Position numbers and translations under genes: made by a program
Notes under the pieces: generated by a model
Databases searched by the model: none
What the model was told of the DNA's origin: nothing
Seen by the model: only the letters and a program-made list of their open reading frames with translations
Assembly: GCA_050117845.1 (NCBI GenBank)
Contig: JASFLY010000017.1
Location: 1 to 56,522 of the forward strand
Length of the DNA stretch: 56,522 nt
Direction: 5' to 3'
Source of the DNA: Candidatus Zixiibacteriota bacterium
GTDB lineage: Bacteria > RBG-13-66-14 > B26-G2 > WVWN01
In this document: one piece after another, positions 5,352 to 53,253 of the stretch
Numbering within the stretch: position 1 is the stretch's first letter
How the letters are laid out: each line of letters starts with the position of its first letter

Positions 5352-5729
5352 GTGTATCCGGAAGATCTGCGCTACGACGAAACGCACGAGTGGGCGAAGG
5401 TGGAGGGCGACGTCGCCACCATCGGCATCACGAATCACGCCCAGTCGGAACTGGGGGATATGGTTTACCTCGAGCTGCCCGCCGTGGGTACCGAGGTGAC
5501 GGCCGGCGGCGAGTTCGGCGTCGTCGAATCGGTCAAGGCCGCGTCGGACGTCTACGCCCCGCTCTCCGGCAAGATAATAGAGGTCAACGACGCCGCCGTC
5601 GAGGACCCCACCGCCGTGAACCGCGACTGCTACGGCGAGGGGTGGCTCGTCAAGATAGAGATAAAAGACGCCTCGGAAGTCGAGAACCTCAAATCGGCCG
5701 CCGAGTATAAAGAGTTCATCGGAGCATAA
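5352..5729 (+). CDS. gcvH: glycine cleavage system H protein (lipoyl carrier)
   Basis: GTG start with an AGGAG RBS. LRYDETHEWAKVEGDVATIGIT ... ESVKAASDVYAPLSG carries the lipoyl-lysine motif. Confidence 0.85.
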   Translation: MYPEDLRYDETHEWAKVEGDVATIGITNHAQSELGDMVYLELPAVGTEVTAGGEFGVVESVKAASDVYAPLSGKIIEVNDAAVEDPTAVNRDCYGEGWLVKIEIKDASEVENLKSAAEYKEFIGA

Positions 5730-8226: not shown

Positions 8227-8264
8227 CGGCCTTAAAGGCGTAAAGAAGGAGAGCGGGGGAGGAA

Positions 8265-9095
8265 ATGACGCGGGCCATTATTGCCGGGATCGTTACGGCG
8301 GCCGTGGCGTTCGCCATCGCCGTAACGCTCCGCGAGGACGTCGGCCTAAGGTGGTTCGGGCCCGATTTCATAGCCCCCGGCGCCAGGTTGCCGGAGGCCA
8401 GGATGGGGGAGAAGCCGCCCGCCGCCCCGGTCGTCCACGTTAGCAGGGAGTGGATTACGGTCCGCGCCAAACGCGTGGCCTCGGCCGAAGAGGCGATTGC
8501 CGACGAGGATTTAATTATAGATGGTTTTTACGGGGAGTTAGTTTCGATCGGTGAAACGTTAGGGAAATGGGATGGGCCCCGTGTGATTCCAGTTGACGCC
8601 GAGGGTCGAATTATCCCCGAATATGGGCCCGAAGACGATTTAATTATTCAAGCCGATAGGGACGTCGAATTCGAATTACTACGCCGCGTTTTTTATACTT
8701 GTGGCCGCGCCGAGTACGGGAGGTTGAACCTTGCGGCAATTAATCCGGATAACCGGGAGTTGGGAGTATTCTCCTTGGATTTACCTACCCTCGGCGATAT
8801 AGACGAACTTGAACCTGAGCCCGGTTTAATAATGGGGGATGATTCGTTGAAGCTAAGTTATAGAGATACCTCCGGGGAGTACGTATTTAGTACCATCGAA
8901 AAGGATTATTCCGTATTGGCGGAGGAGTTAAGGCAAATGAAACGGCGGCGGCCCGGGCAGAAGAGTTTATTGATCATTTGCGCCGCCCACGTGAGATACG
9001 AAGAACTCATCCGCGTCCTGGAAGTTTCGGTTCAACCCGAAATCGCCTTGACGGAAATATACTTAGCCAAATCGGTCGAGGCTTTTGTTAAATGA
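8265..9095 (+). CDS. membrane-anchored protein with two ExbD/TolR-like domains (paralog B)
   Basis: N-terminal 25 aa and C-terminal ~25 aa are near-identical to 7222..8226. The middle is diverged, with visibly lower GC over ~8500-8950. Confidence 0.4.
   Translation: MTRAIIAGIVTAAVAFAIAVTLREDVGLRWFGPDFIAPGARLPEARMGEKPPAAPVVHVSREWITVRAKRVASAEEAIADEDLIIDGFYGELVSIGETLGKWDGPRVIPVDAEGRIIPEYGPEDDLIIQADRDVEFELLRRVFYTCGRAEYGRLNLAAINPDNRELGVFSLDLPTLGDIDELEPEPGLIMGDDSLKLSYRDTSGEYVFSTIEKDYSVLAEELRQMKRRRPGQKSLLIICAAHVRYEELIRVLEVSVQPEIALTEIYLAKSVEAFVK
9003..9062 (+). repeat. second copy of the ~60-nt segment (see 8119..8178)
   Basis: Identical apart from one or two substitutions. Confidence 0.8.
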
Positions 9096-9586
9096 AAATC
9101 GCAACCATAGTAATGGGGGTAATCGTCGCGATCCTGATTGGCGTCGCGATATGGCGGGGCGAAGGTTCCTTGCAGAAGGGCCTTACCTTCGGCGGCAAGA
9201 CCTTCCTGAGTACGTTGCCGCTGCTCGTTTTCGCCTTCGCGATAGCCGGCCTGGTGCAGGTCCTGGTGCCGCGCGAGTTCATCGTAAAGTGGTTGGGTGA
9301 AGGGTCGGGGATTAAAGGCATTTTAATAGCGACGGTCGTGGGCGGCCTGACGCCCGGCGGCCCCTACGTCTCGTTCCCCATCGTGGCCTCGCTGTACAAG
9401 GCCGGCGCGTCGGTGGGGACGGTGGTGGCCTTCGTGACGTCGTGGTCGGTATGGGCCTTCAACCGCCTCCCTTTGGAGATAGGACTGGTCGGCCCCAAAC
9501 TCGCGATCGCCCGTTTCCTGACGACGCTCATCGTCCCGCCGCTCGCGGGCCTGTTCGCGCAGGCCGTGTTCGGCCGGTGGCTCTAA
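9092..9586 (+). CDS. small polytopic membrane protein, putative permease (DUF318/ArsP-like half-size)
   Basis: Four or more hydrophobic helices. The GGLTPGGPYVSFPIVASLYKAG motif resembles predicted-permease families. Overlaps the upstream stop (ATGA). Confidence 0.4.
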   Translation: MKIATIVMGVIVAILIGVAIWRGEGSLQKGLTFGGKTFLSTLPLLVFAFAIAGLVQVLVPREFIVKWLGEGSGIKGILIATVVGGLTPGGPYVSFPIVASLYKAGASVGTVVAFVTSWSVWAFNRLPLEIGLVGPKLAIARFLTTLIVPPLAGLFAQAVFGRWL

Positions 9587-9607: not shown

Positions 9608-11071
9608 ATGAATTTCGAATATCGTAACATCTTCGAAGTCCCCGGCGGCCCGGCGTTCCGGGTGGGCCGGACGGATACCCCCGACGTTAAACCCGAGGAG
9701 TTCTTCCCGAAAGAGTTCCTGCGGACGGACCTGGGGCCGATGGCCGACCACGCCGAGGGCGAGGTCGTCCGGCACTACACCCGGCTGGCGGCGATGAACT
9801 TCGGCGTCGATTCCGGCTTCTATCCCCTCGGGTCCTGCACCATGAAGTACAACCCCAAAATAAACGAGGAAGCGGCGCGCCTGCCCGGCTTCGCTAACCT
9901 GCACCCCTACGCCACGCCCCGGGACGCGGCGGGAGCGCTGCGCCTGATGTACGAACTCGAGCGCGACCTCTCCGAGATATGCGGCATGGCGGCCTTCACG
10001 CTCTGCCCGGCGGCCGGGGCCCACGGCGAACTCGTGGGGATGCTCATGGCCCGGGCGTACCACCGGGCGAACGGCGGCGACGGCCGCAACGTCATGCTTA
10101 TCCCCGACTCGGCCCACGGGACCAACCCCGCGTCGGCCCGGATGGTGGGCTTCGACGTCGTATCGGTGAAGTCGACCGACGAGGGTCTCATCGACCTCGA
10201 CGACCTCAAATCCAAATTGGACGACCGCGTCGCCGGCATGATGATAACGAACCCGAATACGCTGGGCCTCTTCGAGCGCGACATCCTGGAGATTGCGAAG
10301 CTCGTGCACGGGGCCGGCGGCCTGCTCTACTACGACGGCGCGAACCTGAACGCCATCGTGGGCCGCGCCCGCCCCGGCGACATGGGTTTCGACATCTGCC
10401 ACGTCAACCTGCATAAAACGTTCTCGACGCCGCACGGCGGCGGCGGCCCGGGCTCCGGGCCCGTCGGCGTCTCCGCCCGGCTGGTCGATTTCCTCCCGGT
10501 CCCGCGCGTCGTCAAGGAAGGCGACGGCTACGGTTGGGCCGAGGCCTGCCCGAAGTCCATAGGCCGGATCCGTTCCTTCGCCGGGAACTTCGGCGTGCTC
10601 GTCAAAGCCTACACGTATATACGGAACCTCGGCGCGGCGGGTCTCAGGAACGTGGCCGAGGCTGCGGTGCTGAACGCCAACTACCTCCGGGCCCGGGTGG
10701 CCGAGTTCCTGGAAGTGGCTGGCTCCGCCCCCTGCATGCACGAGTTCGTGGCGTCGTCGGAGAAGTTCGGCCGCGGTTCCGCCGGGGATATAGACAAGGC
10801 ACTGATAGACGCCGGCTACCACCCGCCGACGACTTACTTCCCGCTGGTGGTGCACGAGGCGCTCATGATCGAGCCGACCGAGACCGAATCCCGCGAGACG
10901 CTGGACGCCTTCGCGGATACGCTCGCGGCTATCGTGGCCGAGATGGAGAAGGACCCGCACGCCTACGCCGACGCGCCGCTGTTGGCGCCGGTGCGGCGTC
11001 TCGACGAGGCCGGGGCCGCCCGCAACCCCGTCCTCACGCAGATGATGGCCGAGGCGGCGGGCGAAGAGTAA
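9608..11071 (+). CDS. gcvPB: glycine dehydrogenase (decarboxylating) subunit 2
   Basis: HYTRLAAMNFGVDSGFYPLGSCTMKYNP ... SAHGTNPASA are the PLP-binding-half motifs of the P protein. Confidence 0.9.
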   Translation: MNFEYRNIFEVPGGPAFRVGRTDTPDVKPEEFFPKEFLRTDLGPMADHAEGEVVRHYTRLAAMNFGVDSGFYPLGSCTMKYNPKINEEAARLPGFANLHPYATPRDAAGALRLMYELERDLSEICGMAAFTLCPAAGAHGELVGMLMARAYHRANGGDGRNVMLIPDSAHGTNPASARMVGFDVVSVKSTDEGLIDLDDLKSKLDDRVAGMMITNPNTLGLFERDILEIAKLVHGAGGLLYYDGANLNAIVGRARPGDMGFDICHVNLHKTFSTPHGGGGPGSGPVGVSARLVDFLPVPRVVKEGDGYGWAEACPKSIGRIRSFAGNFGVLVKAYTYIRNLGAAGLRNVAEAAVLNANYLRARVAEFLEVAGSAPCMHEFVASSEKFGRGSAGDIDKALIDAGYHPPTTYFPLVVHEALMIEPTETESRETLDAFADTLAAIVAEMEKDPHAYADAPLLAPVRRLDEAGAARNPVLTQMMAEAAGEE

Positions 11072-11075
11072 GGCC

Positions 11076-11741
11076 GTGGCGGACTGGAGCGGGTACCGCT
11101 TGATAGTCGACGGCCCGGGCGAGGCGCGGGAGAACATGGCCCGGGACGAGGCCCTGCTGGCGGCCTACCGGGCCGGGGAGATTCCGCCCACGTGGCGGCT
11201 CTACACCTGGCGGGAGCCGGCGGTCACGTACGGCCGGTCCCAGGAAGCGCCGGCGTGGCCCGCCGAGGTAACCGTGTTGCCCCGGGTGAGCGGCGGCGGT
11301 TACGTCCCCCACGGCGCGGACTTCACGTACTGCGTCGTGCGGGAGCGGCGGACCGGTTTCAGCAATTACGAGGACATCGTGGCCGCGGTGGCCGCGGCGC
11401 TGGCGGAGTTAGGCGTTCCGGCGGACGTGTGGCGGAGCGGCCCGGCGGGCGCGGCGGGTCGTTGTTTCGCGTCGCTCGCGCCCTTCGACGTCCACGTCAA
11501 GGGCAGGAAGATAGCGGGTTGCGCCCAGCGCCGTTTCCGCGACGCGATACTGCATCACGGCTCGATTGCGGCGGCGGTTCCGGCCCCGGCCTTGCGCGAC
11601 CTCGGCCTCTGGGACGAGCGGCGAACGGTAACTCTGGAATCCATCGCCGGCCGAAGCGTCGAATTGGCGGAGTTCGCCGAGGCGCTGGCGGCGATTACGG
11701 GTATGCAAATAACTCCGGTTTCAAGCGCAGAGGATAAGTAA
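11076..11741 (+). CDS. lipoate-protein ligase / octanoyltransferase family protein (LplA/LipM-like catalytic domain)
   Basis: YRLIVDGPGEARENMARDEALL resembles the LplA N-terminus. Has the BPL/LplA/LipB-type domain. Sits in the GcvH context. Confidence 0.65.
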   Translation: MADWSGYRLIVDGPGEARENMARDEALLAAYRAGEIPPTWRLYTWREPAVTYGRSQEAPAWPAEVTVLPRVSGGGYVPHGADFTYCVVRERRTGFSNYEDIVAAVAAALAELGVPADVWRSGPAGAAGRCFASLAPFDVHVKGRKIAGCAQRRFRDAILHHGSIAAAVPAPALRDLGLWDERRTVTLESIAGRSVELAEFAEALAAITGMQITPVSSAEDK

Positions 11742-11743
11742 TT

Positions 11744-12655
11744 ATGAAAATAAAAAAAGTGATACTCTCGGGATGCGCGCTAATAATCGTAGCGGCCCTC
11801 GTCGGATGCGGCAAGGGACAGGCCCCCGAGCCCGAGGTAGTGGCCCGCGTGGGCGACGCCGTCCTTACGCTGGACGAACTCAACCGGCTGGACGAGGACC
11901 AGCATCGCGTAAAGATGCCGACCTACCTCACCAAAGAGGAGCTGATGGAGGAGTGGATTCGCAGCGAGGTCCTCTACCAGAACGCGGTGGAGGAGGGCGT
12001 TCCGGAGGAGAAGGAATGCGCCTGGCGGATCCGCAACAGCGCCAAGGGGATCGTCATCCAGCGGTACTGGGAACTCAACGTCTACGAAAAAAAGGCCGAA
12101 GTCAGCGACGAGGAAGCCCTGGCCTGGTACGAGGATAATAAAGAAAAAAGCTACCGGGCCAAGGAAACCGGCGTCTGGCTGAGGCGGATACTCCTTAATT
12201 CCGAAGGGGCGGCCGCCGACGTTTTGGCGCGTATCGGTAAGGGCGAGGACTTCGCCGCCGTGGCCTTGGACGTTTCGGTTACGCCCGAAAAGCTGAAAGG
12301 CGGAGACCTGGGATATCGGCGCCTGGGCGACGTCAGCCCGACTTACCGGGACGCCGTCGGGAAGATGAAGGAGGGCGAGGTCGCCGGGCCGTTCCGCCTC
12401 GGTCAATTCTACGCCGTATTGAAATTGGAAGACCGGGTGGATGCGGGCGATTACCTGAAGCCCGAGGGCATCGGGATGGAAAGCCTGCGCGATAAGGCGA
12501 AGGTCGAGATGTGGCGCGAGAAGGCGGCCCGCATCGCCGCGGACCTCGGCGCCGCGGCGGACGTCGAACGTCACCCGGAGCGGATCCCCGAGCCGGCCGT
12601 GGATATGGCGTTGGGGGAGGATCTTAAACCGGGGACCGCCGAAAAGGGCGAATAG
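11744..12655 (+). CDS. lipoprotein with parvulin-type peptidyl-prolyl isomerase domain (PrsA/SurA-like)
   Basis: Lipobox LVGC. The LKGGDLGYRRLGDVSPTYRDAV ... GEVAGPF segment resembles the PpiC/rotamase domain. Confidence 0.6.
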   Translation: MKIKKVILSGCALIIVAALVGCGKGQAPEPEVVARVGDAVLTLDELNRLDEDQHRVKMPTYLTKEELMEEWIRSEVLYQNAVEEGVPEEKECAWRIRNSAKGIVIQRYWELNVYEKKAEVSDEEALAWYEDNKEKSYRAKETGVWLRRILLNSEGAAADVLARIGKGEDFAAVALDVSVTPEKLKGGDLGYRRLGDVSPTYRDAVGKMKEGEVAGPFRLGQFYAVLKLEDRVDAGDYLKPEGIGMESLRDKAKVEMWREKAARIAADLGAAADVERHPERIPEPAVDMALGEDLKPGTAEKGE

Positions 12656-14128
12656 ATGGACCGAGACCTCGGATCGATTCAGGAAGCGCGCGATTGTATC
12701 CGGGCCGGCCGCAAGGCCGCGGAGGCGTTCGCGCACTTCGGCCAGGAGGCCGTCGACCGTATAGTCGCGGCCATGGCGCGTGCGGCCGAAGAGGCCGCCG
12801 TCCCCCTGGCGGAATCGGCGGCCGAGGAAACGGCCTTCGGCGTCGCCCGGGATAAAATACAGAAAAACCTCTTCGCGGCGCGCAACGTATACGAGTACAT
12901 AAAGGATATAAAGACCTGCGACGTAATCGCGGACGACCCGGCGACCGGCGTCACCGAGATAGCGAGCCCCGTGGGCCTCATCGCCGGCATAACGCCTACG
13001 ACCAACCCCACGTCGACGACCATATATAAAGCGCTGATTTCGGTAAAAGCGCGGAACGCGGTAGTTTTCTCGCCGCACCCGGCGGCGCTGCGCTGCTCGG
13101 GAGAGGCGGCCGCGATATTGGCCCGGGCCGCGACGGCCGCGGGAGCGCCCGAGGGCGTAATAACGTGGTTGACGCAGCCCACGGCCGAGGCCGCCGAGGA
13201 GTTAATGCGGCACCGCGACGTGGACCTTATCCTCGCGACCGGCGGGATGGCGATGGTGCGGGCGGCGTACTCCTCCGGGAAGCCGGCGTACGGCGTCGGT
13301 CCGGGGAACGTCCCTGCCTATATCGACCGCTCGGCCGACGTGCCGCGGGCCGTCGCCGACATCATATCGTCCAAAACGTTCGACAACGGCGTCATCTGCG
13401 CGTCGGAGCAGGCGGTGGTTTGCGACGCGCCGGCGCGGGACGAGGCGACCCGGGAATTCGAGCGGGGCGGCGCGGCCTTCCTCTCGGCCGAACAGAAACG
13501 CGCGGTCGCGAAAGTCCTCGACGGCGGCGGCCGCCTCAACCCGGCGGTCGTGGGGCAGCCGGCGAGCCGCATCGCCGAGATGGCCGGCTTCGCCGTCCCG
13601 GCGGGCACGAAGCTTTTAATCGGATACGAGGACCGGGTGGGCCCGGACTTCCCGTTCTCCTGGGAGAAGATATCGCCCGTGCTGGCCTGGTACGATACTA
13701 CCGACTGGAAGGCCGGGTGCGAGCGCTGCATGGAAATCCTGGCGTACGGTGGCATGGGGCATACGCTCTCGCTGCACGCGCGCGACGAGGAGGTCATCCG
13801 CGAGTTCGGCCTCCGCAAGCCCGTCTACCGCGTCGTCGTCAACACGCCCTCCTCCCAGGGCGCCATCGGCCTTACGACGGGCCTCGCGCCGGCGCTGACG
13901 CTCGGCTGCGGGACGTTGGGCGGCAATATCACGTCGGACAACATTACGCCCCGGCACCTCATGCACGTCAAGCGCGTGGCCCGGGGACGGGCGCCGGTTA
14001 CTCCCGAGAGTACGGCTTGCCCGGCGGTCGAAGGCGGCGACTCGCCCTGCGGCGGCACGGCCGACCCGGTCCTGGTGGAAAAGATAGTACGGGAGGTCCT
14101 CCGGGAATTGGGAAAAGGGGCGAGTTAG
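12656..14128 (+). CDS. CoA-acylating aldehyde dehydrogenase (EutE/PduP/AdhE-N family), BMC core enzyme with C-terminal encapsulation-peptide-like helix
   Basis: SKTFDNGVICASEQAVV catalytic-Cys motif of acetylating ALDHs. C-terminal DPVLVEKIVREVLRELGK amphipathic helix follows a low-complexity linker. Confidence 0.85.
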   Translation: MDRDLGSIQEARDCIRAGRKAAEAFAHFGQEAVDRIVAAMARAAEEAAVPLAESAAEETAFGVARDKIQKNLFAARNVYEYIKDIKTCDVIADDPATGVTEIASPVGLIAGITPTTNPTSTTIYKALISVKARNAVVFSPHPAALRCSGEAAAILARAATAAGAPEGVITWLTQPTAEAAEELMRHRDVDLILATGGMAMVRAAYSSGKPAYGVGPGNVPAYIDRSADVPRAVADIISSKTFDNGVICASEQAVVCDAPARDEATREFERGGAAFLSAEQKRAVAKVLDGGGRLNPAVVGQPASRIAEMAGFAVPAGTKLLIGYEDRVGPDFPFSWEKISPVLAWYDTTDWKAGCERCMEILAYGGMGHTLSLHARDEEVIREFGLRKPVYRVVVNTPSSQGAIGLTTGLAPALTLGCGTLGGNITSDNITPRHLMHVKRVARGRAPVTPESTACPAVEGGDSPCGGTADPVLVEKIVREVLRELGKGAS

Positions 14129-14620
14129 ATGGTCCTCTTCGTACGCCGCATCGTCGACGCGTTCCGAAGACGGCCCCTGGATTTGCACGTTTTCTGCCTG
14201 GTCCTCTTCATGATCGGCGCCGTTTTCGTCTTCGGGTACCAGGTGCGCGTCTTTTGGGAGGTCGTGATTACGGACCGGACGCCCCTGGAGGGGACGCCCG
14301 TCTTCCAGGCGCTCACCGGCATGACGCTGTTGACCGACCTGGTGTGGTCGCCGTTTCTCGTGGCTTCGTCGATAGGTATCTGGCTGTACCGGAACTGGGG
14401 CCGCAAGCTCGGTTTCATCATCGGCGGCGTCATGGCCTATATGGGGACGCAGGGGCTGCTATTCTTCCCGCTGACGCGCCGCTTCGGCGTCGACGCGGTG
14501 GAGGACTTCACTCGCTATTACGAATTCACGGCCTATATGGCCTACTACGCAATTTACGCGGCCGTCGGGTTCACGATGATATTTTACCTCTGGTTCCGAA
14601 AAATAGACTTGAGCCGGTAG
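14129..14620 (+). CDS. hypothetical 4-TM integral membrane protein embedded in the BMC locus
   Basis: Four hydrophobic helices and aromatic-rich. No family recognised. Confidence 0.5.
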   Translation: MVLFVRRIVDAFRRRPLDLHVFCLVLFMIGAVFVFGYQVRVFWEVVITDRTPLEGTPVFQALTGMTLLTDLVWSPFLVASSIGIWLYRNWGRKLGFIIGGVMAYMGTQGLLFFPLTRRFGVDAVEDFTRYYEFTAYMAYYAIYAAVGFTMIFYLWFRKIDLSR

Positions 14621-14676
14621 CATTTATTTGATAAATAGCGTTAAACGTATTCATACCATACGCGAAAGGAGCGAGG

Positions 14677-14976
14677 ATGCCCTCTAAAACGGAGATGGCC
14701 CTCGGAATGGTGGAAACGCGGGGCCTCGTGGCCGCAATCGAAGCGGCGGACGCGATGGTCAAGGCGGCGAACGTTCGACTCTTGGACAAGGTGCGGGTCG
14801 GCGGCGGCCTCGTAACCGTACTGGTGCGCGGCGAGACCGGCGCGGTCAAGGCCGCGACGGAGGCCGGCGCGGCGGCGGCGGCCAAGGTCGGCGAACTCGT
14901 ATCGGTCCACGTTATCCCGCGGCCCGACGACCACGTGGAATTTATACTCCCGGAAGAAGTCGGGAAAAAAGGCTAA
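14677..14976 (+). CDS. BMC shell protein, single-domain hexamer type (BMC-H, PduA/EutM-like)
   Basis: [29 protein letters not shown] is the canonical PF00936 BMC-domain signature. AGGAG RBS. Confidence 0.9.
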
Positions 14977-14995
14977 GCGGGGAAAACGTTAAGAC

Positions 14996-15823
14996 ATGGC
15001 CGCGGACGACCATGAAGCCGTTGTACGGGCTGTAACCGCGGCGGTGATGGCGAAGCTGGGGGCCGGCGGGCCTCGGACTTTCGAGGCGCCGGTGGGCGTT
15101 TCCGGCCCCCACATTCACCTGACGCCCGGGGACGTGGCGACGCTGTTCGGCGCCGGCGCGCGTTTGTCGGTAATGAGGCCGCTGGTGCAATGCGGCCAGT
15201 TCGCGGCGAACGAAGCGGTGACTATCGTCGGGCCGGCTTCGTCGCTTTCCGGCGTTCGCGTGGTCGGCCCGACGCGCGAGAGCACGGTGGCGGAACTTCT
15301 GGCGGGGGACCTGGTGCGGCTCGGCCTGGACCCGGACGTACGGGCGGGCGAGCCGTTCGCCGTTACCGTCGCGGGACCCGCGGGCGTCGTCCACCTTCCG
15401 GCGGGGGGCGTCGTGGCCCGGCGGCACCTCCACGTCCCGGCGGCCAGGGCCGGAGAATTGGGCGTGACGGACGGGATGGACGTCTCCGCGCGGATGGGTG
15501 CGCCGGGGCGGCGGGTTACGTTCCACGACGTCCTGGTGCGCGTGAGCCCGGAGGCCGGCCTGGAACTCCACGTCGACCGGGAGGAGGCCAACGCTTGCGG
15601 CGTCCGGACGGGAGCCGCGGCCGAGATCGTGATGGGCGCGGCCGTTCCCGCGGCGAGCGGGGTGCCGGCGAAAACGGCCGGAAGGCCCCTCGTAACCGAG
15701 GAAGACGTCGTGCGGGCCCACGCGGAAGGCCGGGAGCCCCGGCTGGCGGGCGCCATTCTTACGCCTTACGCCCGGGACGCCGTCCGTAAATTATTCCCGG
15801 AGTTGCTTAACTTTTTAGAATGA
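14996..15823 (+). CDS. phosphate acyltransferase PduL/EutD-type (phosphotransacylase of metabolosomes)
   Basis: Two PduL repeats: VGVSGPHIHLTPGDVATLFG and VVARRHLHVPAARAGELGV. N-terminal EAVVRAVTAAVMAKLG is amphipathic and encapsulation-peptide-like. Confidence 0.8.
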   Translation: MAADDHEAVVRAVTAAVMAKLGAGGPRTFEAPVGVSGPHIHLTPGDVATLFGAGARLSVMRPLVQCGQFAANEAVTIVGPASSLSGVRVVGPTRESTVAELLAGDLVRLGLDPDVRAGEPFAVTVAGPAGVVHLPAGGVVARRHLHVPAARAGELGVTDGMDVSARMGAPGRRVTFHDVLVRVSPEAGLELHVDREEANACGVRTGAAAEIVMGAAVPAASGVPAKTAGRPLVTEEDVVRAHAEGREPRLAGAILTPYARDAVRKLFPELLNFLE

Positions 15824-15946
15824 GTTATAATCCTATAAGGAAAGAAACATAATGAACGGGACCGGGGCCGGTTCCGCTAACGCGCGACGCGGCCTCCGGC
15901 GCATACGGCCGACGCGTAGGCCGGTTTATTATTGGGGTTCGATACG

Positions 15947-16219
15947 ATGATGCGGATCGCGGAAGTGGTGGGCAACGTGTGGGCGACGCGCAAGGTTGAA
16001 AGCGTGCGCTCTCTCAAGATGCTGCTCGTTCGACCCTTGAACGCCGACCTAAAACCGACCGACGAAATGTGGGTCGCGGCGGACGTGGTGGACGCCGGCG
16101 CCGGCGACCGGGTCATCGTCGCCGTAGGCCGGGCGGCCCGGCTGGCGGTGGGCGACGACGACGCGGCCGTATCCGCGGCCGTTGTAGGCGTCGTGGACTC
16201 GCACGAGGTGAAGGCGTAA
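15947..16219 (+). CDS. BMC vertex protein (BMC-P, EutN/CcmL/PduN family)
   Basis: MMRIAEVVGNVWATRK N-terminus and ~90-aa size are typical of PF03319 pentamer proteins. Confidence 0.8.
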   Translation: MMRIAEVVGNVWATRKVESVRSLKMLLVRPLNADLKPTDEMWVAADVVDAGAGDRVIVAVGRAARLAVGDDDAAVSAAVVGVVDSHEVKA

Positions 16220-16226
16220 CGGCCCG

Positions 16227-17537
16227 ATGACCTTCGTCGAGACCATTAGAAACGCCGGAATCCTGGGGGCCGGGGGAGCCGGCTTCCCGGCTCACGTGAA
16301 GTACGGCCGGGAGGCCGAGATACTTATTATTAACGGTGCGGAGTGCGAACCCCTCTCCCGCAAGGACGCGGCCATCCTGGCCCACCGGGCCGCCGACGTA
16401 GTAACCGCGGCCGGTACGTTGCGGGAGGAACTCCGGGCCCGGGAAGTAATCCTGGCGGTCAAGGGGCCCGCGGCGACCGAAATAAGCGGCCTTTACGGCG
16501 GCGTCAGGATACACCCTTTGCCGGAGGTGTATCCCGCCGGCGACGAGGCCGTCCTGGTATACGAGGTGGCGGGCCGTCGCGTTCCGGCCGACGGCGTTCC
16601 GCCCGACGTGGGCGTCGTTGTCTCGAACGTCGAGACGGTGCTCAACGTCGCCCGGGCGGGCCGGGGAGCGCCGGTGCTCACGACCTGGGTGACGGTGGCG
16701 GGGGCGGTGCGCGAGCCCTTCACCGCGGAGGTTCCGGTCGGGACGGGCGCGCGTTTTCTCATAGACGAGGCGGGCGGCCCCGCGGTCGCCGATTACGTCG
16801 TCTTTGAGGGGGGACCGATGATGGGCGAGGAGGTGGACCCGGCCTCGTTCGGCGTCGGGCCCACGACCGGTTTGATCCTCGTCCTGCCGGCGGGCCATCC
16901 GGTGGTGGCGCGAAACCGCCTGCCGCTCGAGCACGTACGGACCATCGCCGGTAGCGCCTGCACGCAGTGCCGCGACTGCACCGAGATGTGCCCGCGGTAC
17001 CTCCTGGGCTACGACGTTACGCCCCACCTTTCGATGCGGCGCTTCTTCAGTTGGGGCGACGACGCCGCGGCCGCGGGGGAGTTTTTCGCGAACGCCGCCG
17101 GCTGTACCGGCTGCGGCCTTTGCGAATTGTACGCCTGCCCGATGGCCATATCGCCTCGTCGCGTCCAGCTTCACTTGCGGGAAATCGTAACGGCGGCGAG
17201 GGCCGAAGGGGCCGGCGAGGTGCACGCCGACCGTTCGGGGCGGCAGGTCCCGGCGGGGCGGCTCAAGAAGCGCATAGAAGTGGACGAGTACGACCGGCCG
17301 GCGCCGCTGCGGGAACTCGCCGAGGCGCCCCGGACGGTGACGATAAAGCTGGTTCAACCGTACGCCGGCGCGCTCGACGTACTCGTGCGGGAGGGGGACC
17401 GCGTGGAAGCGGGGCAGGTTCTGGCGAAGCCGAAAGAGGGCGACGACCGGGCCGTACCGGCGTACGCGAGCATCGGCGGCCGGGTGGCCGCGGCCGGCCC
17501 GGGCGAAGTGACGATAGACCGAACGCAGGTGGCCTAA
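16227..17537 (+). CDS. RnfC/PduS-like Fe-S flavoprotein (SLBB + NADH-binding motif + two 4Fe-4S clusters)
   Basis: GILGAGGAGFPAHVKY is the RnfC/NuoF/PduS motif. Cys clusters CTQCRDCTEMCP and CTGCGLCELYACP. Confidence 0.75.
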   Translation: MTFVETIRNAGILGAGGAGFPAHVKYGREAEILIINGAECEPLSRKDAAILAHRAADVVTAAGTLREELRAREVILAVKGPAATEISGLYGGVRIHPLPEVYPAGDEAVLVYEVAGRRVPADGVPPDVGVVVSNVETVLNVARAGRGAPVLTTWVTVAGAVREPFTAEVPVGTGARFLIDEAGGPAVADYVVFEGGPMMGEEVDPASFGVGPTTGLILVLPAGHPVVARNRLPLEHVRTIAGSACTQCRDCTEMCPRYLLGYDVTPHLSMRRFFSWGDDAAAAGEFFANAAGCTGCGLCELYACPMAISPRRVQLHLREIVTAARAEGAGEVHADRSGRQVPAGRLKKRIEVDEYDRPAPLRELAEAPRTVTIKLVQPYAGALDVLVREGDRVEAGQVLAKPKEGDDRAVPAYASIGGRVAAAGPGEVTIDRTQVA

Positions 17538-17564
17538 CGCGTTGCGGTTAAGGAGATGTTGGCG

Positions 17565-18275
17565 ATGATAAGGAAAACGGCGATAATGCTGCTGGCGCTC
17601 GCGACGTTCGCGGCGGTAGGGTGGGCCGACTACGAGAAGCCGGACCTCGAGAAAGCGGACATCGACAAGGACGACCTCGCCCGTTTCAAGGAGGCGTACA
17701 CCCGCTACCTCGAGGGCGTCGAGTTCGAAAAGGAAGGGTCCTGGGTGTCGGCGAGCAAGTCGTACCGCGCGGCGGTGGATATTTACAATAACTATCCGGA
17801 CGCGCAGTACGGCCTGGGCCGGATGGCCCTGCGGCTGGGCCGCCTCGACGAGGCGGAGGATGCTTTGCGGGAAGCCCTTACCCTCAAGCCCGAACTGCAC
17901 CAGGCCCACACCGAACTCGGCAGCGTGCATTACCGGCGCGGCGATTACAATAAAGCTGCGTTCGAATATAAGGAAGCGCTCAAGCACGACTCGAGCGACG
18001 TCGTGGCCCGCTACAACCTGGGTAACGCATACCGGAACCTGGACAAGCCCAAGAACGCGATCGACCAGTACGAAAAGACGCTCGCGCTCGACGCTTCTTA
18101 CGTGGACTGTTACTACAACATGGCGCTGGCCTACGAGGACCTGGAAGACGCGGACAAGGCCATCACGGCGTACGACAGGTTCATAGAGGCGGCGCGGGAC
18201 GACCCCGATCAGGCCGAGTGGGTAAATCGGGCGAAAGAGTATAAACAGAAATTATTGGACGAGAAGGGTAAATAG
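17565..18275 (+). CDS. TPR-repeat protein, probably lipo/secreted, inside the BMC locus
   Basis: Signal-like IMLLALATFAAVGW. Multiple 34-aa TPR units (AQYGLGRMALRLGRLDEAE, AHTELGSVHYRRGDY, ARYNLGNAYRNLDK, CYYNMALAYEDL). The first ATG (17556) lacks RBS spacing, so the second was chosen. Confidence 0.65.
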   Translation: MIRKTAIMLLALATFAAVGWADYEKPDLEKADIDKDDLARFKEAYTRYLEGVEFEKEGSWVSASKSYRAAVDIYNNYPDAQYGLGRMALRLGRLDEAEDALREALTLKPELHQAHTELGSVHYRRGDYNKAAFEYKEALKHDSSDVVARYNLGNAYRNLDKPKNAIDQYEKTLALDASYVDCYYNMALAYEDLEDADKAITAYDRFIEAARDDPDQAEWVNRAKEYKQKLLDEKGK

Positions 18276-18833
18276 TTGACGCTGCCGGAAGAGGCCATCG
18301 GCCTGGTCGAGTTCTCATCCATCGCCCGGGGCATCGAAGCCGTGGACGCGATGGTGAAGGAGGCGGACGTCCGGCTGCTGGCGGCGCGGACGGCGTGCTC
18401 CGGCAAGTACATCGGCCTCGTGGCCGGGGCGGTCGCGGCGGTGAAATCGGCGGTGAGCGCCGGCAAGGATATGGGGCGAGGGCATTACGTAGACGGTTTG
18501 GTAATCCCGAACGTGCACAAACAGGTCCTGGCCGCGGCGGCCGGGACGGTGGAAGTACCCGAAAAGGGGGCCCTGGGGATAATCGAGACGTTTTCGCTGG
18601 CGTCCGCCCTTTTGGCGGCGGACGCGGCGGTGAAGGCCGCGCCGGTGACGCTTCTGGAAGTGCGCCTCGGCACGGGCATAGGCGGTAAAGGTTTCGCCAC
18701 GCTGGTGGGCGAGACGGCGGCGGTAACGTCGGCCGTGGGCGCGGGCGCTCGAGAGGCGTCGGCCCGGGGCCTTCTGGTCGCGACCGCGGTAATCCCGGCT
18801 CCGTACCGGGAAGTGATGGATAAACTCATATAA
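18276..18833 (+). CDS. tandem-domain BMC shell protein (BMC-T, PduT-like)
   Basis: Two BMC domains: IGLVEFSSIARGIEAVDAMVKEADVRLL and LGIIETFSLASALLAADAAVKAAPVTLLEV. TTG start assumed. Confidence 0.75.
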   Translation: MTLPEEAIGLVEFSSIARGIEAVDAMVKEADVRLLAARTACSGKYIGLVAGAVAAVKSAVSAGKDMGRGHYVDGLVIPNVHKQVLAAAAGTVEVPEKGALGIIETFSLASALLAADAAVKAAPVTLLEVRLGTGIGGKGFATLVGETAAVTSAVGAGAREASARGLLVATAVIPAPYREVMDKLI

Positions 18834-18859
18834 CCGGTAACTGGCGGTATGATTAAGAG

Positions 18860-19147
18860 ATGACTGTCAAGGAGATAATCAACGTAAAGGGTAAGCACCT
18901 CGGCTATTTCGAAGCCTGGTGCAAGGCGTGCGGCATTTGCATCGCGCTGTGCCCGAAACACGTCTTCGACACCGGGGCCGACGGCAAGCCCATCGTGGCC
19001 CGGCCGGCCGATTGCATAAACTGCGGCATGTGCGAAATCATGTGCCCCGATTTCGCGATAGGCTGGTACGAGGACCCGTTGTGTGACGAAGAGTTGAAAG
19101 AGGCTCACAAACGCAGTGGCGACGACGAGTGGGCCAAGCACCGCTAA
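18860..19147 (+). CDS. 2-oxoacid:ferredoxin oxidoreductase delta subunit (2x[4Fe-4S] ferredoxin)
   Basis: CKACGICIALCP and CINCGMCEIMCP motifs in a ~95-aa protein immediately upstream of the alpha subunit. Confidence 0.75.
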   Translation: MTVKEIINVKGKHLGYFEAWCKACGICIALCPKHVFDTGADGKPIVARPADCINCGMCEIMCPDFAIGWYEDPLCDEELKEAHKRSGDDEWAKHR

Positions 19148-19189
19148 CCAATCGTTCTTAACTCCGTTCATAAGGTAGCGTGCAGTAAA

Positions 19190-20323
19190 ATGACCTTGAT
19201 GCAAGGGAACGAGGCGATTGCCCGGGCGGCGTTGGACGCCGGCGTGCGTTTTTTCGCCGGTTATCCGATAACGCCCTCGACGGAGATCGCCGAAATCATG
19301 TCGGTGGAACTCCCCAAGGTAGGCGGGAAGTTCCTTCAGATGGAGGACGAGATAGCGTCGCTGGCCGCGGTCATCGGCGCCTCTCTCACCGGGGCGCGGG
19401 CCATGACGGCCACGAGCGGCCCCGGCTTCTCTCTCATGCAGGAGAACCTCGGCTACGCGTACATGACCGAGGTTCCTTGTTTAATCGTTAACGTAATGCG
19501 GGGCGGCCCCAGCACCGGCCTTCCCACCGGCCCGTCCCAGGGCGACGTTATGCAGGCGCGCTGGGGTACCCACGGCGACCATCCGGCCATTTCGCTGGTG
19601 CCGTCGTCCGTCCTCGATTGCTACAAGCAGACCGTGCGGGCCATTAACCTGGCCGAACGTTTCCGGATGCCCGTCATACTCCTGCCGGACGAGGTGGTGG
19701 CCCACATGCGCGAGGACGTGACCCTGCCCGACCACGCCGACGTCGTCCCCCGCGCCGAACCGGAAGTCCCGTACGAGTGGTACAACCCGTACGACGACTC
19801 CACGACCGACGTGGCGCCGCTCGCGTCTTTCGGGACGGGGTTCCGCTTCCACGTCACCGGCCTGGTGCACGACCGGGCGGGCTTCGCCACAACGGTGCCG
19901 GCGGAAGTCGACCGGGCGATACGCAATCTCAAACGCAAGATGGACCGTTTCCGCAAGGAGATAATACAGGTGGAGCGCCTGCACCTGGCCGACGCCGACA
20001 TCGTCGTCGCGGCCTACGGCATCTGCGCCCGTTCCGCCGAGGCGGCCACGCTCAAGGCCCGCGAGAAGGGCTACCGTGTCGGCTGCATCAATATGAAGAC
20101 CGTATGGCCGTTCTGCTTCAAACTCATCCAGCGCGTGGCACAGACGGCCCGGGCGATAATCGTCCCGGAGATGAACCTCGGCCAGCTCGTGCGCGAGTTC
20201 GAACGCGCCGTATGCGGCAAAACCCAGGTTATACCTCTGAACCGGGTCGACGGCGAGGCGATAACGCCGCGCCAGATTATGGACGTAATCAACGAACTCG
20301 GCCCCGGCGGAGGTGAGGCCTAA
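19190..20323 (+). CDS. 2-oxoacid:ferredoxin oxidoreductase alpha subunit
   Basis: MTLMQGNEAIARAALDAGVRFFAGYPITPSTEI ... ATSGPGFSLMQE match the KorA/PorA/OorA family. Confidence 0.85.
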   Translation: MTLMQGNEAIARAALDAGVRFFAGYPITPSTEIAEIMSVELPKVGGKFLQMEDEIASLAAVIGASLTGARAMTATSGPGFSLMQENLGYAYMTEVPCLIVNVMRGGPSTGLPTGPSQGDVMQARWGTHGDHPAISLVPSSVLDCYKQTVRAINLAERFRMPVILLPDEVVAHMREDVTLPDHADVVPRAEPEVPYEWYNPYDDSTTDVAPLASFGTGFRFHVTGLVHDRAGFATTVPAEVDRAIRNLKRKMDRFRKEIIQVERLHLADADIVVAAYGICARSAEAATLKAREKGYRVGCINMKTVWPFCFKLIQRVAQTARAIIVPEMNLGQLVREFERAVCGKTQVIPLNRVDGEAITPRQIMDVINELGPGGGEA

Positions 20324-21171
20324 TGGAGAAACCGCGCGAATTGAATCCGTCGGAACTCATGCACGAGTTCCTGCGCCATAAAAAGAAGTTCCCCCACGTG
20401 TGGTGTTCCGGCTGCGGCATCGGGACGACGATGGGCGCTATTATCCGCGCCATCGCCGATACCGAACTCGACCGCGACCGGGTCGTAATGGTCTCGGGCA
20501 TCGGCTGCAGCTCGCGTATGCCCATATACGTAGACTTCAACACGCTCCACACCACCCACGGCCGGCCCATCGCCTTCGCGACCGGCATCAAGACCGCCCG
20601 CCCCGACCTCGAGGTCATCGTGGTCACGGGCGACGGCGACGCCGCCGCCATCGGCGGCAACCACCTCATCCACGCCTGCCGGCGCAACATCAACCTCACC
20701 GTCATCTGCATCAACAACAACATCTACGGCATGACCGGCGGCCAGGCCTCGCCCACGACGCCGCCCGGCAAGTTCGCGACGACCGCCCGCTACGGCGACT
20801 TCGAGCGGGACTTCGATTTATGCGATCTGACGGCCGGGGCCGGGGCGGCCTTCGTCGCCCGCGGCGCGGTATACTACGCGAGGCAACTCCAGAAACTGAT
20901 CCAGCAAGCCCTCGTCAAGAAGGGATTCGCCTTCGTCGAGGTCGTCTCACAGTGCCCGACCTACTACGGGCGTTTTAATAAATTCAAATCGCCGGTGGAA
21001 ATGCTCTACTGGCAACGCGACAATACGGTGAACGTTAAGACGGTGGGGAAGATGAAACCGGAAGAGCTCGAAGGCAAGCTGTTAACCGGCGTCCTGGCGG
21101 ACCACGATTATCCCGAATTCACGGAGAAGTACGACAAGCTGATCCAGGATTTGGCGGCGGGGAGGAAGTAA
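20323..21171 (+). CDS. 2-oxoacid:ferredoxin oxidoreductase beta subunit (TPP-binding)
   Basis: WCSGCGIG ... VVTGDGDAAAIGGNHL ... CINNNIYGMTGGQ match the TPP/Fe-S beta-subunit motifs. The start overlaps the alpha stop. Confidence 0.85.
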   Translation: MEKPRELNPSELMHEFLRHKKKFPHVWCSGCGIGTTMGAIIRAIADTELDRDRVVMVSGIGCSSRMPIYVDFNTLHTTHGRPIAFATGIKTARPDLEVIVVTGDGDAAAIGGNHLIHACRRNINLTVICINNNIYGMTGGQASPTTPPGKFATTARYGDFERDFDLCDLTAGAGAAFVARGAVYYARQLQKLIQQALVKKGFAFVEVVSQCPTYYGRFNKFKSPVEMLYWQRDNTVNVKTVGKMKPEELEGKLLTGVLADHDYPEFTEKYDKLIQDLAAGRK

Positions 21172-21173
21172 TA

Positions 21174-21743
21174 ATGGTAGTCGTGAGATTCGCCGGATAC
21201 GGCGGCCAGGGACTCCTAACGGCCGGCCTGATACTAGCGGACGCGGCCGGCATGTATGATAAGAAAAAGGTCGTCCAGACGCAGAGTTACGGCGCCGAGG
21301 CGCGAGGGGGAGCGAGTCGCTCCGACGTCATCGTCTCCGACGAAGACATCGTATTCCCCAAGCCCGACCACCTCGACGTGCTGGTGGCCATGAACCAACT
21401 CTCGGTCGACAAGTACTCCTCGGCGTTGTCCGAGGGCGGAACGCTGATAGCCGACGCGACCTTCGTCACGACGGTTACCTTCACGAACGCGTATCTCATA
21501 CCGTTCACCGCCGTCGCCCGCGACAAGATAGGCCGGGAGATAGTCGCCAACGTCGTGGCCCTCGGGGCCCTGGTGGAGCTCGAGAAGGTCGTTTCCAAGA
21601 AAGCGGTTACGAAGGCCCTCGAGCAGCGCATCCCGCCGGGCGCCCTGGATATCAATCGCAAGGCGTTGGAGGCCGGCTTCAAGGCGGGCCGGGCTTGCGC
21701 GGCCGAGCGCGAAAAGGCGGTCGAGGACTTCGACATCGTATAG
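21174..21743 (+). CDS. 2-oxoacid:ferredoxin oxidoreductase gamma subunit
   Basis: FAGYGGQGLLTAGLILADAA ... QSYGAEARGG match the PorG/KorC/OorC family. Gene order delta-alpha-beta-gamma as in OorDABC. Confidence 0.8.
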   Translation: MVVVRFAGYGGQGLLTAGLILADAAGMYDKKKVVQTQSYGAEARGGASRSDVIVSDEDIVFPKPDHLDVLVAMNQLSVDKYSSALSEGGTLIADATFVTTVTFTNAYLIPFTAVARDKIGREIVANVVALGALVELEKVVSKKAVTKALEQRIPPGALDINRKALEAGFKAGRACAAEREKAVEDFDIV

Positions 21744-22162: not shown

Positions 22163-22717
22163 ATGGCCGCGTCGCGGTGGAACCTGGCCAATCTGCTCAC
22201 GCTGTGCCGCCTGCCGCTGGCGGCGGCGGGGGCGTACTTCCTGTGGGGCCGGGAGTACCCGGGCGTGGGCGTGGCGTTCCTCGCCGCGGCGGCGCTGACC
22301 GATATTTTGGACGGCGTGGCGGCCCGAGCGCTGAATCAGATAACCGATTTCGGCAAGAAGATTGACCCTATCGCCGACAAGATATCCATCGCCGCCGTGG
22401 GCGTCGTCCTCGTCCTGCGATACGGCGTACCGTGGTGGATCTTCGCCGTCGCGGTGGCCCGGGACGTGGCGATCCTGATATCGGCCGCGATAATCATCTC
22501 GCGGCGCGAGGTGGTCGTACCGTCCAATTTCTGGGGCAAGGCCGCGGCGCTCATGATGGTGCTCTACGGCATCGCCGCCGTCGTCGCGACCGGGTCCTGG
22601 ATTACCGTAGTATTGATGTGGCTCGTGCTGGCGGCGATTATCATCTCCACCGCCTCGTACGGTTACGATTTCTACCGGGTGCTGTCCTCGGGCGCGCCCG
22701 GCCGCCGCGAGAAGTAA
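22163..22717 (+). CDS. CDP-alcohol phosphatidyltransferase family protein (PgsA-like)
   Basis: DILDGVAARALNQITDFGKKIDPIADK follows the D-G-x2-A-R-x8-G-x3-D-x3-D pattern. Multi-TM. Confidence 0.7.
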   Translation: MAASRWNLANLLTLCRLPLAAAGAYFLWGREYPGVGVAFLAAAALTDILDGVAARALNQITDFGKKIDPIADKISIAAVGVVLVLRYGVPWWIFAVAVARDVAILISAAIIISRREVVVPSNFWGKAAALMMVLYGIAAVVATGSWITVVLMWLVLAAIIISTASYGYDFYRVLSSGAPGRREK

Positions 22718-22788
22718 CGCGGCTAGGTTTTTCGTTATTTAACCGTTCATTTCATTCCACAAAGGAGTCGGGACTTTTCATGGCGTAT

Positions 22789-23616
22789 AAGATACTCGCG
22801 CGGGACGATATTACGAGCGAGTCGGTCCGTATGGTCGTCGCCGCGCCGCACGTGGCCCGAAAATGCGATCCGGGTCAGTTCATCATGTACCGGTTGGACG
22901 AACGGGGCGAACGCATCCCGCTCACTATCGCCGATTTCGACCGCGATGCCGGGACTATCACTATCATCTTCCAGAAGGTCGGGAAGAGCACCTACCATCT
23001 GGCGGAGTTCCAGGCCGGCGACGAGATTCTCGATTTCGTCGGGCCGCTGGGCCGCCATATGGACGTGGGGAAGCTCGGCACCGTGGCCTGCCTCGGCGGC
23101 GGCCTCGGCATAGCGCCCATTTACCCCAAGGTCCGCGCCCTTAAGGCGGCGGGGAACACCGTCGTGTCCGTAATCGGCGCGAGGCGCAAGGACCTCGTCA
23201 TACTCGAGGAAGAGATGCGTTCCCACAGCGACGAACTCTTCGTCACCACTGACGACGGTTCGTACGGCCTTCACGGCTTCGTCACCGACCAGCTCAAACA
23301 GCTCATCGACGAAGGCCGCAAGTTCGACGCCTGTCTCGCCGTAGGCCCCATCCCGATGATGGAAGCGGTTTGCCGACTCACGAAGGAACTCGGCCTCCCG
23401 ACTCTCGTCAGCCTCGACACCATCATGGTCGACGGGACCGGGATGTGCGGTTCCTGCCGCGTAACCGTGGCGGGCGAGACCAAGTTCGCGTGCGTGGACG
23501 GGCCGGTCTTCGACGGCCACCAGGTGGATTGGGATGAGGCGAAAGCGCGGCAGGTCCGGTACCGGCCGCAGGAGTGCCAGGCGTTGGAGAAATTCCAGAA
23601 GGAGCAGGGTCAATAA
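22789..23616 (+). CDS. nfnA: NfnA/SudB-like FAD/NAD-binding [2Fe-2S] oxidoreductase subunit
   Basis: MAYKILARDDITSESVRMVVAAP... is the ferredoxin-NADP-reductase-like fold. C-terminal CGSCRV...C cluster. Family of DHOD electron-transfer subunit / NfnA. Confidence 0.7.
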   Translation, partial: KILARDDITSESVRMVVAAPHVARKCDPGQFIMYRLDERGERIPLTIADFDRDAGTITIIFQKVGKSTYHLAEFQAGDEILDFVGPLGRHMDVGKLGTVACLGGGLGIAPIYPKVRALKAAGNTVVSVIGARRKDLVILEEEMRSHSDELFVTTDDGSYGLHGFVTDQLKQLIDEGRKFDACLAVGPIPMMEAVCRLTKELGLPTLVSLDTIMVDGTGMCGSCRVTVAGETKFACVDGPVFDGHQVDWDEAKARQVRYRPQECQALEKFQKEQGQ

Positions 23617-23618
23617 TA

Positions 23619-48169: not shown

Positions 48170-48195
48170 TGATAGTTAAAGTAATATCTTCGCAT

Positions 48196-49966: not shown

Positions 49967-49990
49967 TGCCCGCGAACGGGGCGACTGGTA

Positions 49991-51025: not shown

Positions 51026-51028
51026 CGC

Positions 51029-52363: not shown

Positions 52364-52472
52364 CGCGTTGAGAGTTTGTGGATAACTGCGCGCCGGAAGC
52401 GGTACAATATTAATAATCAGGCGGATACGGGCCTAAGTTAAAGTTAATAATAGGTTAAAAGGTGCCTACGCA

Positions 52473-53246: not shown

Positions 53247-53253
53247 CGTAGAC

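Follow-up and report, generated by a model that had tools for sequence, protein, structure and literature searches.

The 56,522-nucleotide contig JASFLY010000017.1 (assembly GCA_050117845.1, deposited under Candidatus Zixiibacteriota), called the window below, contains a bacterial microcompartment (BMC) locus at positions 12656-18833, with all genes on the + strand and intergenic gaps of 0-123 nt. Gene families were called on the open reading frames (ORFs) of the window with Pfam and NCBIfam, RNAs were searched with Rfam, and PduL was analysed with AF2/AlphaFold and Foldseek. The locus is confirmed to be of the metabolosome type, with the full minimal shell set (BMC-H, BMC-P, BMC-T) and core enzymes, including an aldehyde dehydrogenase (AldDH), a PduL-type phosphotransacylase (PTAC) and a metabolosome NADH dehydrogenase of the PduS type (MNdh). 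Metabolosomes without a signature enzyme are a recognised class, and this locus adds a new variant to it that has no name so far; it probably recycles NAD+ in the established way, by an MNdh and a PduT-type BMC-T (BMC-T^SE). We consider it probable (about 0.62) that a functional metabolosome for aldehyde oxidation, with a minimal gene set, is encoded here; it would convert acetaldehyde to acetyl-phosphate, while the aldehyde would come from a step encoded elsewhere or from the cytoplasm.

Shell proteins, core enzymes and proposed NAD+ recycling

An earlier note, made from the letters of this DNA alone, had described the three shell proteins next to a core of AldDH, PduL and an RnfC/PduS-like protein. 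The PF00936 and PF03319 profile matches confirmed all three shell genes, and the family searches upheld every call of the core (Table 1). In the alignment with PduA, the BMC-H keeps KAAN, the standard motif of the interface, but reads PRPD instead of PRPH. The ATG of the BMC-P gene at 15947 agrees with the starts of its orthologues. The window and the related loci each contain one BMC-P only, and no BMC-P triplet.

The AldDH matched PF00171 (E=1.9e-23), and its residues 2-485 of 490 were aligned to the NCBIfam model TIGR02518 (EutH_ACDH, acetylating acetaldehyde dehydrogenase). The catalytic Cys is located in the motif FDNGVICASEQ. At the C-terminus, a Pro/Gly-rich linker is followed by an amphipathic helix, LVEKIVREVLRELG, which resembles an encapsulation peptide (EP). 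This helix had already been pointed out in the earlier note, and its conservation bears the claim out: the alignment showed it in all family members, and also in the EUT-type loci L086 and L088. The C-terminal EP is linked to EUT2-type AldDHs in the catalogue of Sutter et al. 2021 (PMC8217296). The relatives of the AldDH outside its own family come from many contexts and share 52-62% identity with it. For example, the identity is ~60-62% to L133, an EUT2-like locus (P0030 group) with adenosyltransferase, EutJ, flavoprotein, PduS/T and permease; 53-55% to the EutABC locus L086; and 55-57% to acidobacterial ACI satellite loci, which consist of AldDH and BMC-H only. The SPU-like locus L131 and L088 are also among these relatives. 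Judged by these sequence comparisons, the closest typed relatives of the AldDH are EUT2-like loci (L133, L086).

The AlphaFold model of PduL (mean pLDDT 84.6) was superposed by Foldseek on the PduL of R. palustris (5CUO) with a TM of 0.91 and an rmsd of 1.8 Å, which confirms the predicted fold at the level of the model. PduL also has an EP-like helix at the N-terminus, EAVVRAVTAAVMAKL, which the earlier note had not mentioned; residues 2-23 are modelled as helical, and the helix was present in most family members in the alignment. At the C-terminal end, a module of ~45 aa (residues 230-275, window 15686-15823) follows a disordered linker and is confidently modelled as a small β-α-β-α unit with the motif LVTE.DV..A...G......GAI.TP.ARD. 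The module had no Pfam or PDB sequence match, and the fold search, run with the whole PduL model, was dominated by the PduL core. The motif was also found on the PduLs of unrelated BMC loci, including L131:10001-10852, L132:10001-11065 and L088:7447-8253 (at the N-terminus in the latter), and it is therefore a recurrent accessory module of PduL and not a peculiarity of this locus.

The MNdh contains the NADH/FMN motif GAGGAGFP, the Complex1_51K and SLBB domains, two [4Fe-4S] sites and a C-terminal RnfC_N barrel, and it matched TIGR01945 (rnfC) at the subfamily level. Both Cys4 motifs for the [4Fe-4S] clusters, CTQCRDCTEMCP and CTGCGLCELYACP, are complete as read from the sequence. The pore Cys of the BMC-T aligns with C38 of the Salmonella PduT and is kept throughout the family. 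A 2024 study, in which the PduS homologues were renamed MNdh, reported that they oxidise the lumenal NADH and that the electrons reach an outside acceptor by way of the [4Fe-4S] cluster in the cognate PduT homologue (BMC-T^SE); it counted 361 catalogued BMC loci in which this pair occurs with an AldDH but no alcohol dehydrogenase (PMC11626177). The window locus has the same MNdh domain architecture, a tandem BMC-T with the pore cysteine, and the same co-occurrence with an AldDH but no alcohol dehydrogenase. The absence of the alcohol dehydrogenase is therefore not anomalous, because such a pair regenerates NAD+ by electron export. By analogy, the recycling of NAD+ has presumably been taken over by the MNdh/BMC-T^SE pair instead of an encapsulated alcohol dehydrogenase.

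The proposed mechanism might be as follows. We infer that a shell assembles around AldDH and PduL as cargo, which would be targeted by the C-terminal and the N-terminal helix, respectively. A small aldehyde, most probably acetaldehyde because of the AldDH family, would be oxidised to acyl-CoA with the reduction of NAD+. PduL would convert the acyl-CoA to acyl-phosphate and recycle CoA within the shell, and with the flux in this direction the acyl-phosphate would exit the shell and could yield ATP. The MNdh would dock on the BMC-T, and its electrons would reach an external acceptor by way of a [4Fe-4S] cluster bound at the pore cysteines, which would regenerate NAD+. The aldehyde-producing step would not be encoded in cis: either it belongs to a satellite module elsewhere in the genome, or a cytoplasmic aldehyde is consumed. 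With one H, one P, one T, AldDH, PduL and MNdh, this is among the most stripped-down metabolosome cores seen. Without an alcohol dehydrogenase, a regulator or a transporter, it would be a compact natural example of NAD+ recycling by electron export, and possibly a minimal chassis for engineering.

Several observations weigh against this proposal. The AldDH scored 615.2 bits against TIGR02518, marginally below the curated equivalog cutoff of 620.1, which makes the specificity for acetaldehyde uncertain. The pore motif of the BMC-T is C-S-G-K in the whole family (Ser for Pro); whereas CP(G/S)K is published for the MNdh/BMC-T^SE module (PMC11626177), and the two genes of the pair are here separated by the gene of an exported TPR protein. 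No signature enzyme was found in the window or within ±10 kb of the related loci annotated with Pfam (L002, L083-L085 and L089-L092; L093-L103 were compared with the window's own proteins only, and have the same gene order). Moreover, there is no acetate kinase in or near the locus, and no riboswitch or regulator was detected in or near it (Rfam, at gathering and permissive thresholds).

Related loci and known BMC types

The search with the AldDH yielded ~35 close clusters at 90% identity, and the neighbour-joining tree grouped 34 of them with the window. The locus thus belongs to a small family limited to its lineage, with ~35-38 protein clusters from metagenome-assembled genomes labelled Ca. 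Coatesbacteria or Zixiibacteriota. Clade A (68-93% identity) includes the window, L002, L085, L089 and L094-L102; clade B (~61% identity) includes L083/L084 and L090-L092; and clade C (~59% identity) is represented by L134. All of these loci belong to related lineages. The six BMC genes are intact and in constant order in every related locus that is long enough, down to ~60% AldDH identity. The architecture of the window locus was thus recovered in clades A and B, and partially in clade C. The intact genes, the constant order, and the conserved helices, pore Cys and cofactor motifs indicate purifying selection on a working unit rather than decay. The AldDH search of genome contigs returned only Acidobacteria loci of the ACI type and missed the Coatesbacteria genomes; among the hits of the metagenome search with the TPR alignment, 11 were true loci of the family and 27 were TPR genes unrelated to it.

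L002 is the complete genome CP070633.1, which was deposited as Ca. Coatesbacteria and is fully syntenic with the window. The taxonomic labels disagree, since the proteins of the window are filed under a Ca. Zixiibacteriota metagenome-assembled genome (PVH29_10140). In the shell protein trees of the 2021 catalogue, the BMC-Ps of Ca. Coatesbacteria 4484_99 and RBG_13_66_14 were tagged as fragmented/incomplete and ‘(sat) (omitted)’, and so were a BMC-P and a PduT-type BMC-T of Zixibacteria (PMC8217296). These entries show that the shell genes of these phyla had been seen in poor assemblies but never typed. The literature search found no paper describing a BMC in the phyla with these labels, and the window locus is the first BMC locus type from them to be seen in full.

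The earlier note had claimed that neither a signature enzyme nor an alcohol dehydrogenase lies in or beside the locus, and the scan of all called ORFs of the window bore this out. It revealed no diol dehydratase, EutBC, glycyl-radical enzyme, class II/DeoC aldolase, aminotransferase of the phospho-lyase type or alcohol dehydrogenase. In terms of families, EutB/EutC (PF06751/PF05985) occur neither in the window nor in those flanks of the related loci that carried Pfam calls; the class II aldolase PF00596, the DeoC-type aldolase PF01791 and the RpiB-type isomerase PF02502 are absent from the window.

Some PLP enzymes were considered as candidates and rejected. The class III aminotransferase at 45448-46677 is not a phospho-lyase; by its TIGR01885 score, which lies above the cutoff, it is an ornithine aminotransferase. 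At 3045-4208, a class I aminotransferase was considered as Kbl or as a threonine aldolase, but its family is that of aspartate aminotransferase, and it is unlinked to the locus in clade B. The 350-aa PLP enzyme between the AldDH and BMC-H genes of L134 is HisC (TIGR01141, above cutoff).

Many metabolosome loci with an AldDH and without an obvious signature enzyme have been catalogued, including ACI, FRAG1-7, HO, MIC2-7 and MUF2-3, and EUT2x is an EUT2-like locus without EutBC (PMC8217296). The absence of a signature enzyme is therefore not surprising in itself, and the phenomenon is already well documented. The comparison with the catalogue agrees with the earlier note that the locus fits none of the PDU, EUT, GRM, PVM, RMM, ETU and SPU types. 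The interpretation given in the earlier note is only partly sustained: the suggestion of an undescribed type is defensible, since the shell genes of these phyla were known to the catalogue only from fragmentary assemblies and were omitted; the signature-less class itself had already been recognised.

Comparison with the individual types showed both similarities and differences. The EUT2 loci, including EUT2x, have an EutH_ACDH-type AldDH, which the AldDH of the window resembles, and they share with the window locus its C-terminal EP, a PF06130 PTAC and a single BMC-P, and many of the EUT2 subtypes have the PduS/PduT pair; whereas the window locus has no EutABC, adenosyltransferase, EutQ, EutJ, EutL or permease, and the protein identities are ~40-62%. 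EUT2x is confined to Bacillales, where it mostly accompanies a full EUT2 locus. The main loci of FRAG7, MIC4, MUF3 and SPU7 share AldDH, PTAC, PduS/PduT and BMC-H, and also have no obvious aldehyde-generating enzyme; however, the EPs of their AldDHs are N-terminal and they have BMC-P triplets. They also carry genes which are absent from the window locus, namely the flavoprotein PF02441 in FRAG7, the aldolase PF00596 together with acetate kinase in MIC4 and MUF3, and PF02502/PF01791 in SPU7. The ACI satellites have an AldDH with an EP near the C-terminus and a BMC-H gene beside it, but no PduL, MNdh or BMC-P; the main locus of this type encodes a class II aldolase and has its BMC-Ps as a triplet. 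The SPU-like L131 shares only the C-terminal module of PduL. As a separate observation, L088:2930-16745 is a different BMC locus type with genes that resemble those of glutamine synthetase, octopine dehydrogenase and glutamate synthase (GATase, GXGXG, Glu_synthase); it also contains AldDH, PduL, PduS/T, BMC-H, BMC-P, acetate kinase and an amino-acid permease.

These similarities raise the question of a split EUT2-like system, an alternative that is possible but unlikely. The core would be derived from EUT, and a satellite EutBC (with EutA, adenosyltransferase, and perhaps a shell protein of the EutL type) would be encapsulated here. Several traits point towards EUT2: the AldDH is EutH_ACDH-like, has the C-terminal EP typical of EUT2 and finds its closest typed relatives in EUT2-like loci, the PTAC is of the BMC-specific PF06130 kind, and there is a single BMC-P. 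The catalogue offers precedents in the satellite ‘EUT modules’ of the SPU3, SPU6 and HO genomes and in the signature-less EUT2x (PMC8217296). However, no remnant of EutA, EutT/PduO, EutQ, EutJ, EutL or a permease is left at the locus, and no cobalamin riboswitch was found in the window with Rfam. Moreover, the AldDH is only 53-62% identical to the EUT-type enzymes, similar to its identity to the ACI, SPU-like and other types.

The gene string around the locus

The BMC genes lie within a longer co-directional string of housekeeping genes (Table 1). The earlier note had placed glycine-cleavage/lipoylation genes upstream and a ferredoxin-dependent 2-oxoacid oxidoreductase downstream, and the family calls agree. 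The gene order in clades A and B is constant, i.e., GcvT-H-PA-[insert]-PB, LipB, PPIase, AldDH, [slot], BMC-H, PduL, BMC-P, MNdh, TPR and BMC-T; the short contig of clade C (L134) contains LipB-PPIase-AldDH-[slot]-BMC-H-PduL. Before GcvT lies the gene of the aspartate aminotransferase family (3045-4208). Past the oxidoreductase are genes for NDK, a CDP-alcohol phosphatidyltransferase and an NfnAB-like pair. This pair (22432-25046) consists of a DHODB-type Fe-S/FAD subunit and a GltD-like subunit, and is kept downstream in all clade-A loci.

Table 1. Genes of the BMC locus and of the surrounding string in the window
Feature	Position	Strand	Family match or remark
GcvT	4222-5325	+	
GcvH	5352-5729	+	
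GcvPA	5848-7200	+	
Window-specific tandem pair	7222-9095	+	
ArsP_1-like 164-aa membrane protein	9092-9586	+	
GcvPB	9608-11071	+	
LipB-like lipoyl transferase	11076-11741	+	
PPIase lipoprotein	11744-12655	+	Abuts the AldDH start
AldDH, EutE/AdhE-N-like, CoA-acylating (acetylating)	12656-14128	+	PF00171, TIGR02518
163-aa protein, four hydrophobic segments	14129-14620	+	No family match
BMC-H hexamer shell protein	14677-14976	+	Single-domain PF00936, E=9.9e-28
PduL-type phosphotransacylase	14996-15823	+	PF06130, E=9.5e-48
BMC-P pentamer (vertex) shell protein, single copy	15947-16219	+	PF03319, E=2.4e-24
PduS-type metabolosome NADH dehydrogenase (MNdh)	16227-17537	+	PF01512, PF10531, PF13534, PF13375
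TPR protein, Sec-type signal peptide	17556-18275	+	TPR families
PduT-type tandem BMC-T (putative BMC-T^SE)	18276-18833	+	2x PF00936, E=3.3e-42
2x[4Fe-4S] ferredoxin (delta)	18860-19147	+	
Ferredoxin and 2-oxoacid/2-oxoglutarate:ferredoxin oxidoreductase alpha, beta, gamma	18860-21743	+	

The conserved linkage to the glycine-cleavage genes offers a testable hypothesis on the substrate. A cleavage of the threonine aldolase/SHMT type would yield an aldehyde and glycine; the BMC would oxidise the acetaldehyde, and the gcv products would consume the glycine. It is quite improbable that the co-linearity is functional in this way, with the organelle handling acetaldehyde from a β-hydroxy-amino-acid aldolase pathway or another glycine-linked C1/C2 aldehyde. 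The order from GcvT to BMC-T is kept in clades A and B and that of LipB-PPIase-AldDH in clade C, even though both outer flanks change. The genes abut or overlap (the PPIase stops at 12655 and the AldDH starts at 12656), and neither a terminator-like site nor a promoter-like site of at least 10/12 occurs from 2205 to the PduL/BMC-P gap. Some of the neighbours are related to amino-acid catabolism or redox reactions (the enzyme of the aspartate aminotransferase family, the oxidoreductase and the NfnAB-like genes). However, neither the window nor any of the flanks contains a gene for an aldolase or SHMT, and the Gcv proteins have no EP-like extensions. The string also includes unrelated genes, such as those of the exported PPIase and TPR proteins, HisC in L134 and the toxin-antitoxin pair in L090, and vertical inheritance would suffice to explain an arrangement that occurs only in related lineages. 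No precedent for BMCs linked to glycine cleavage or to a threonine aldolase was found in the literature. If true, the linkage would define a new type of amino-acid-catabolising metabolosome, whose signature enzyme yields glycine and an aldehyde.

The flanking genes named in the earlier note have to be treated with caution as clues to function. They were identified correctly, but adjacency in a co-directional string of mixed functions is a weak indicator of a shared function, and the linkage of the oxidoreductase is limited to one clade. The run of ferredoxin, oxidoreductase, NDK and NfnAB occurs in every clade-A locus of sufficient length (the linkage was seen in L002, L085, L089 and L094-L101) and is absent in clade B (L083, L090).

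A compartment coupled to this oxidoreductase is very improbable. The ferredoxin and the 2-oxoacid:ferredoxin oxidoreductase would be its cargo, redox partner or aldehyde source. The ferredoxin gene begins 26 nt past the BMC-T gene and is directly followed by the oxidoreductase, an arrangement conserved in clade A but missing in clade B. The subunits align end to end with non-BMC models and show no EP-like extension, which suggests that the enzyme is probably not cargo. A low-potential ferredoxin could not be reduced by the electrons from NADH without extra energy, and the oxidoreductase makes acyl-CoA directly, by which an AldDH becomes unneeded. The catalogue does contain a pairing of PFOR-like enzymes with a BMC, BUF3, for which encapsulation was proposed; however, these enzymes have BMC-specific extensions and BUF3 has no AldDH (PMC8217296), whereas the window locus has an AldDH and an extension-free oxidoreductase.

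A decaying, non-functional remnant of a complete metabolosome that has lost its signature enzyme would account for the missing signature enzyme, regulator and transporter and for the unrelated genes interleaved with the BMC genes, but is hardly likely in view of the six intact BMC genes in every related locus of sufficient length and of the conservation of the targeting helices, the Cys of the pore, the His motifs for metal binding and the Cys motifs for the Fe-S clusters.

Within the gcv genes, the gap between GcvPA and GcvPB contains different inserts. The ArsP_1-like protein is only some 50% as long as the Pfam permease model, and is conserved at this site in clade A only; L090 has a nucleotidyltransferase/HepT toxin-antitoxin pair instead. 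The tandem paralogues of the window (7222-8226 and 8265-9095) are 41% identical to each other, with near-identical N-terminal transmembrane helices and C-terminal ~30 aa. They showed a weak ExbD/TolR-like match, the local GC content falls to 0.58, and they are absent from every related locus. The differing inserts suggest that this gap is an insertion hot spot.

The string may begin at a pair of signals at 2135-2205. A strong terminator-like hairpin (2135-2156; 8 bp, 7 of them GC) is followed by the best sigma-70-like promoter match of the scanned 2-22 kb (2178-2205; 11/12), which lies ahead of the gene for an MBL-fold hydrolase at 2215. The counts of the promoter and terminator scan were not above those of shuffled sequences, and only this pair stands out.

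Envelope proteins and other features of the window

Envelope proteins are conserved inside the gcv-BMC string. The signal sequences indicate that the TPR protein and the PPIase are exported. The PPIase is a lipoprotein with the signal LVGC. The TPR protein had also been called a lipoprotein in the earlier note; this was not upheld, since its signal peptide is of the Sec type and has no lipobox cysteine. The alignment showed that the signal peptide is conserved, with a cleavage site of the Ala-X-Ala type, at 41-79% identity, and the gene lies between those of MNdh and BMC-T in every locus of clades A and B. Judged by these signals, the TPR protein is probably periplasmic and not a component of the lumen.

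The slot after the AldDH gene is variable. Clade A has the 163-aa protein there, L083 a pentapeptide-repeat protein of 618 aa and L134 HisC, and in L090 the slot is empty; L083 also carries a gene of the glyoxalase family after PduL. The 163-aa protein had been described as an unknown membrane protein with four transmembrane segments, and its four hydrophobic segments and the lack of a Pfam or NCBIfam match are in line with that description. Homologues were found within the family only (25 clusters, 66-100% identity), and the protein is probably located outside the organelle.

Elsewhere in the window, the gene for the selenocysteine-specific elongation factor SelB (43492-45426) is directly followed by the ornithine aminotransferase gene (45448-46677). 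Synthesis of selenoproteins by this organism may be presumed, but none of them was recognised in the window. The only Rfam match of the window is a bacterial class A RNase P RNA at 39974-40366 (RF00010, 264.8 bits). A cluster for the outer membrane and lipid A at 49427-54084 contains OmpH/Skp, LpxD, a fused LpxC-FabZ, LpxA and LpxI, with a BamG-like gene upstream (48169-49389), and this cluster indicates a diderm envelope.

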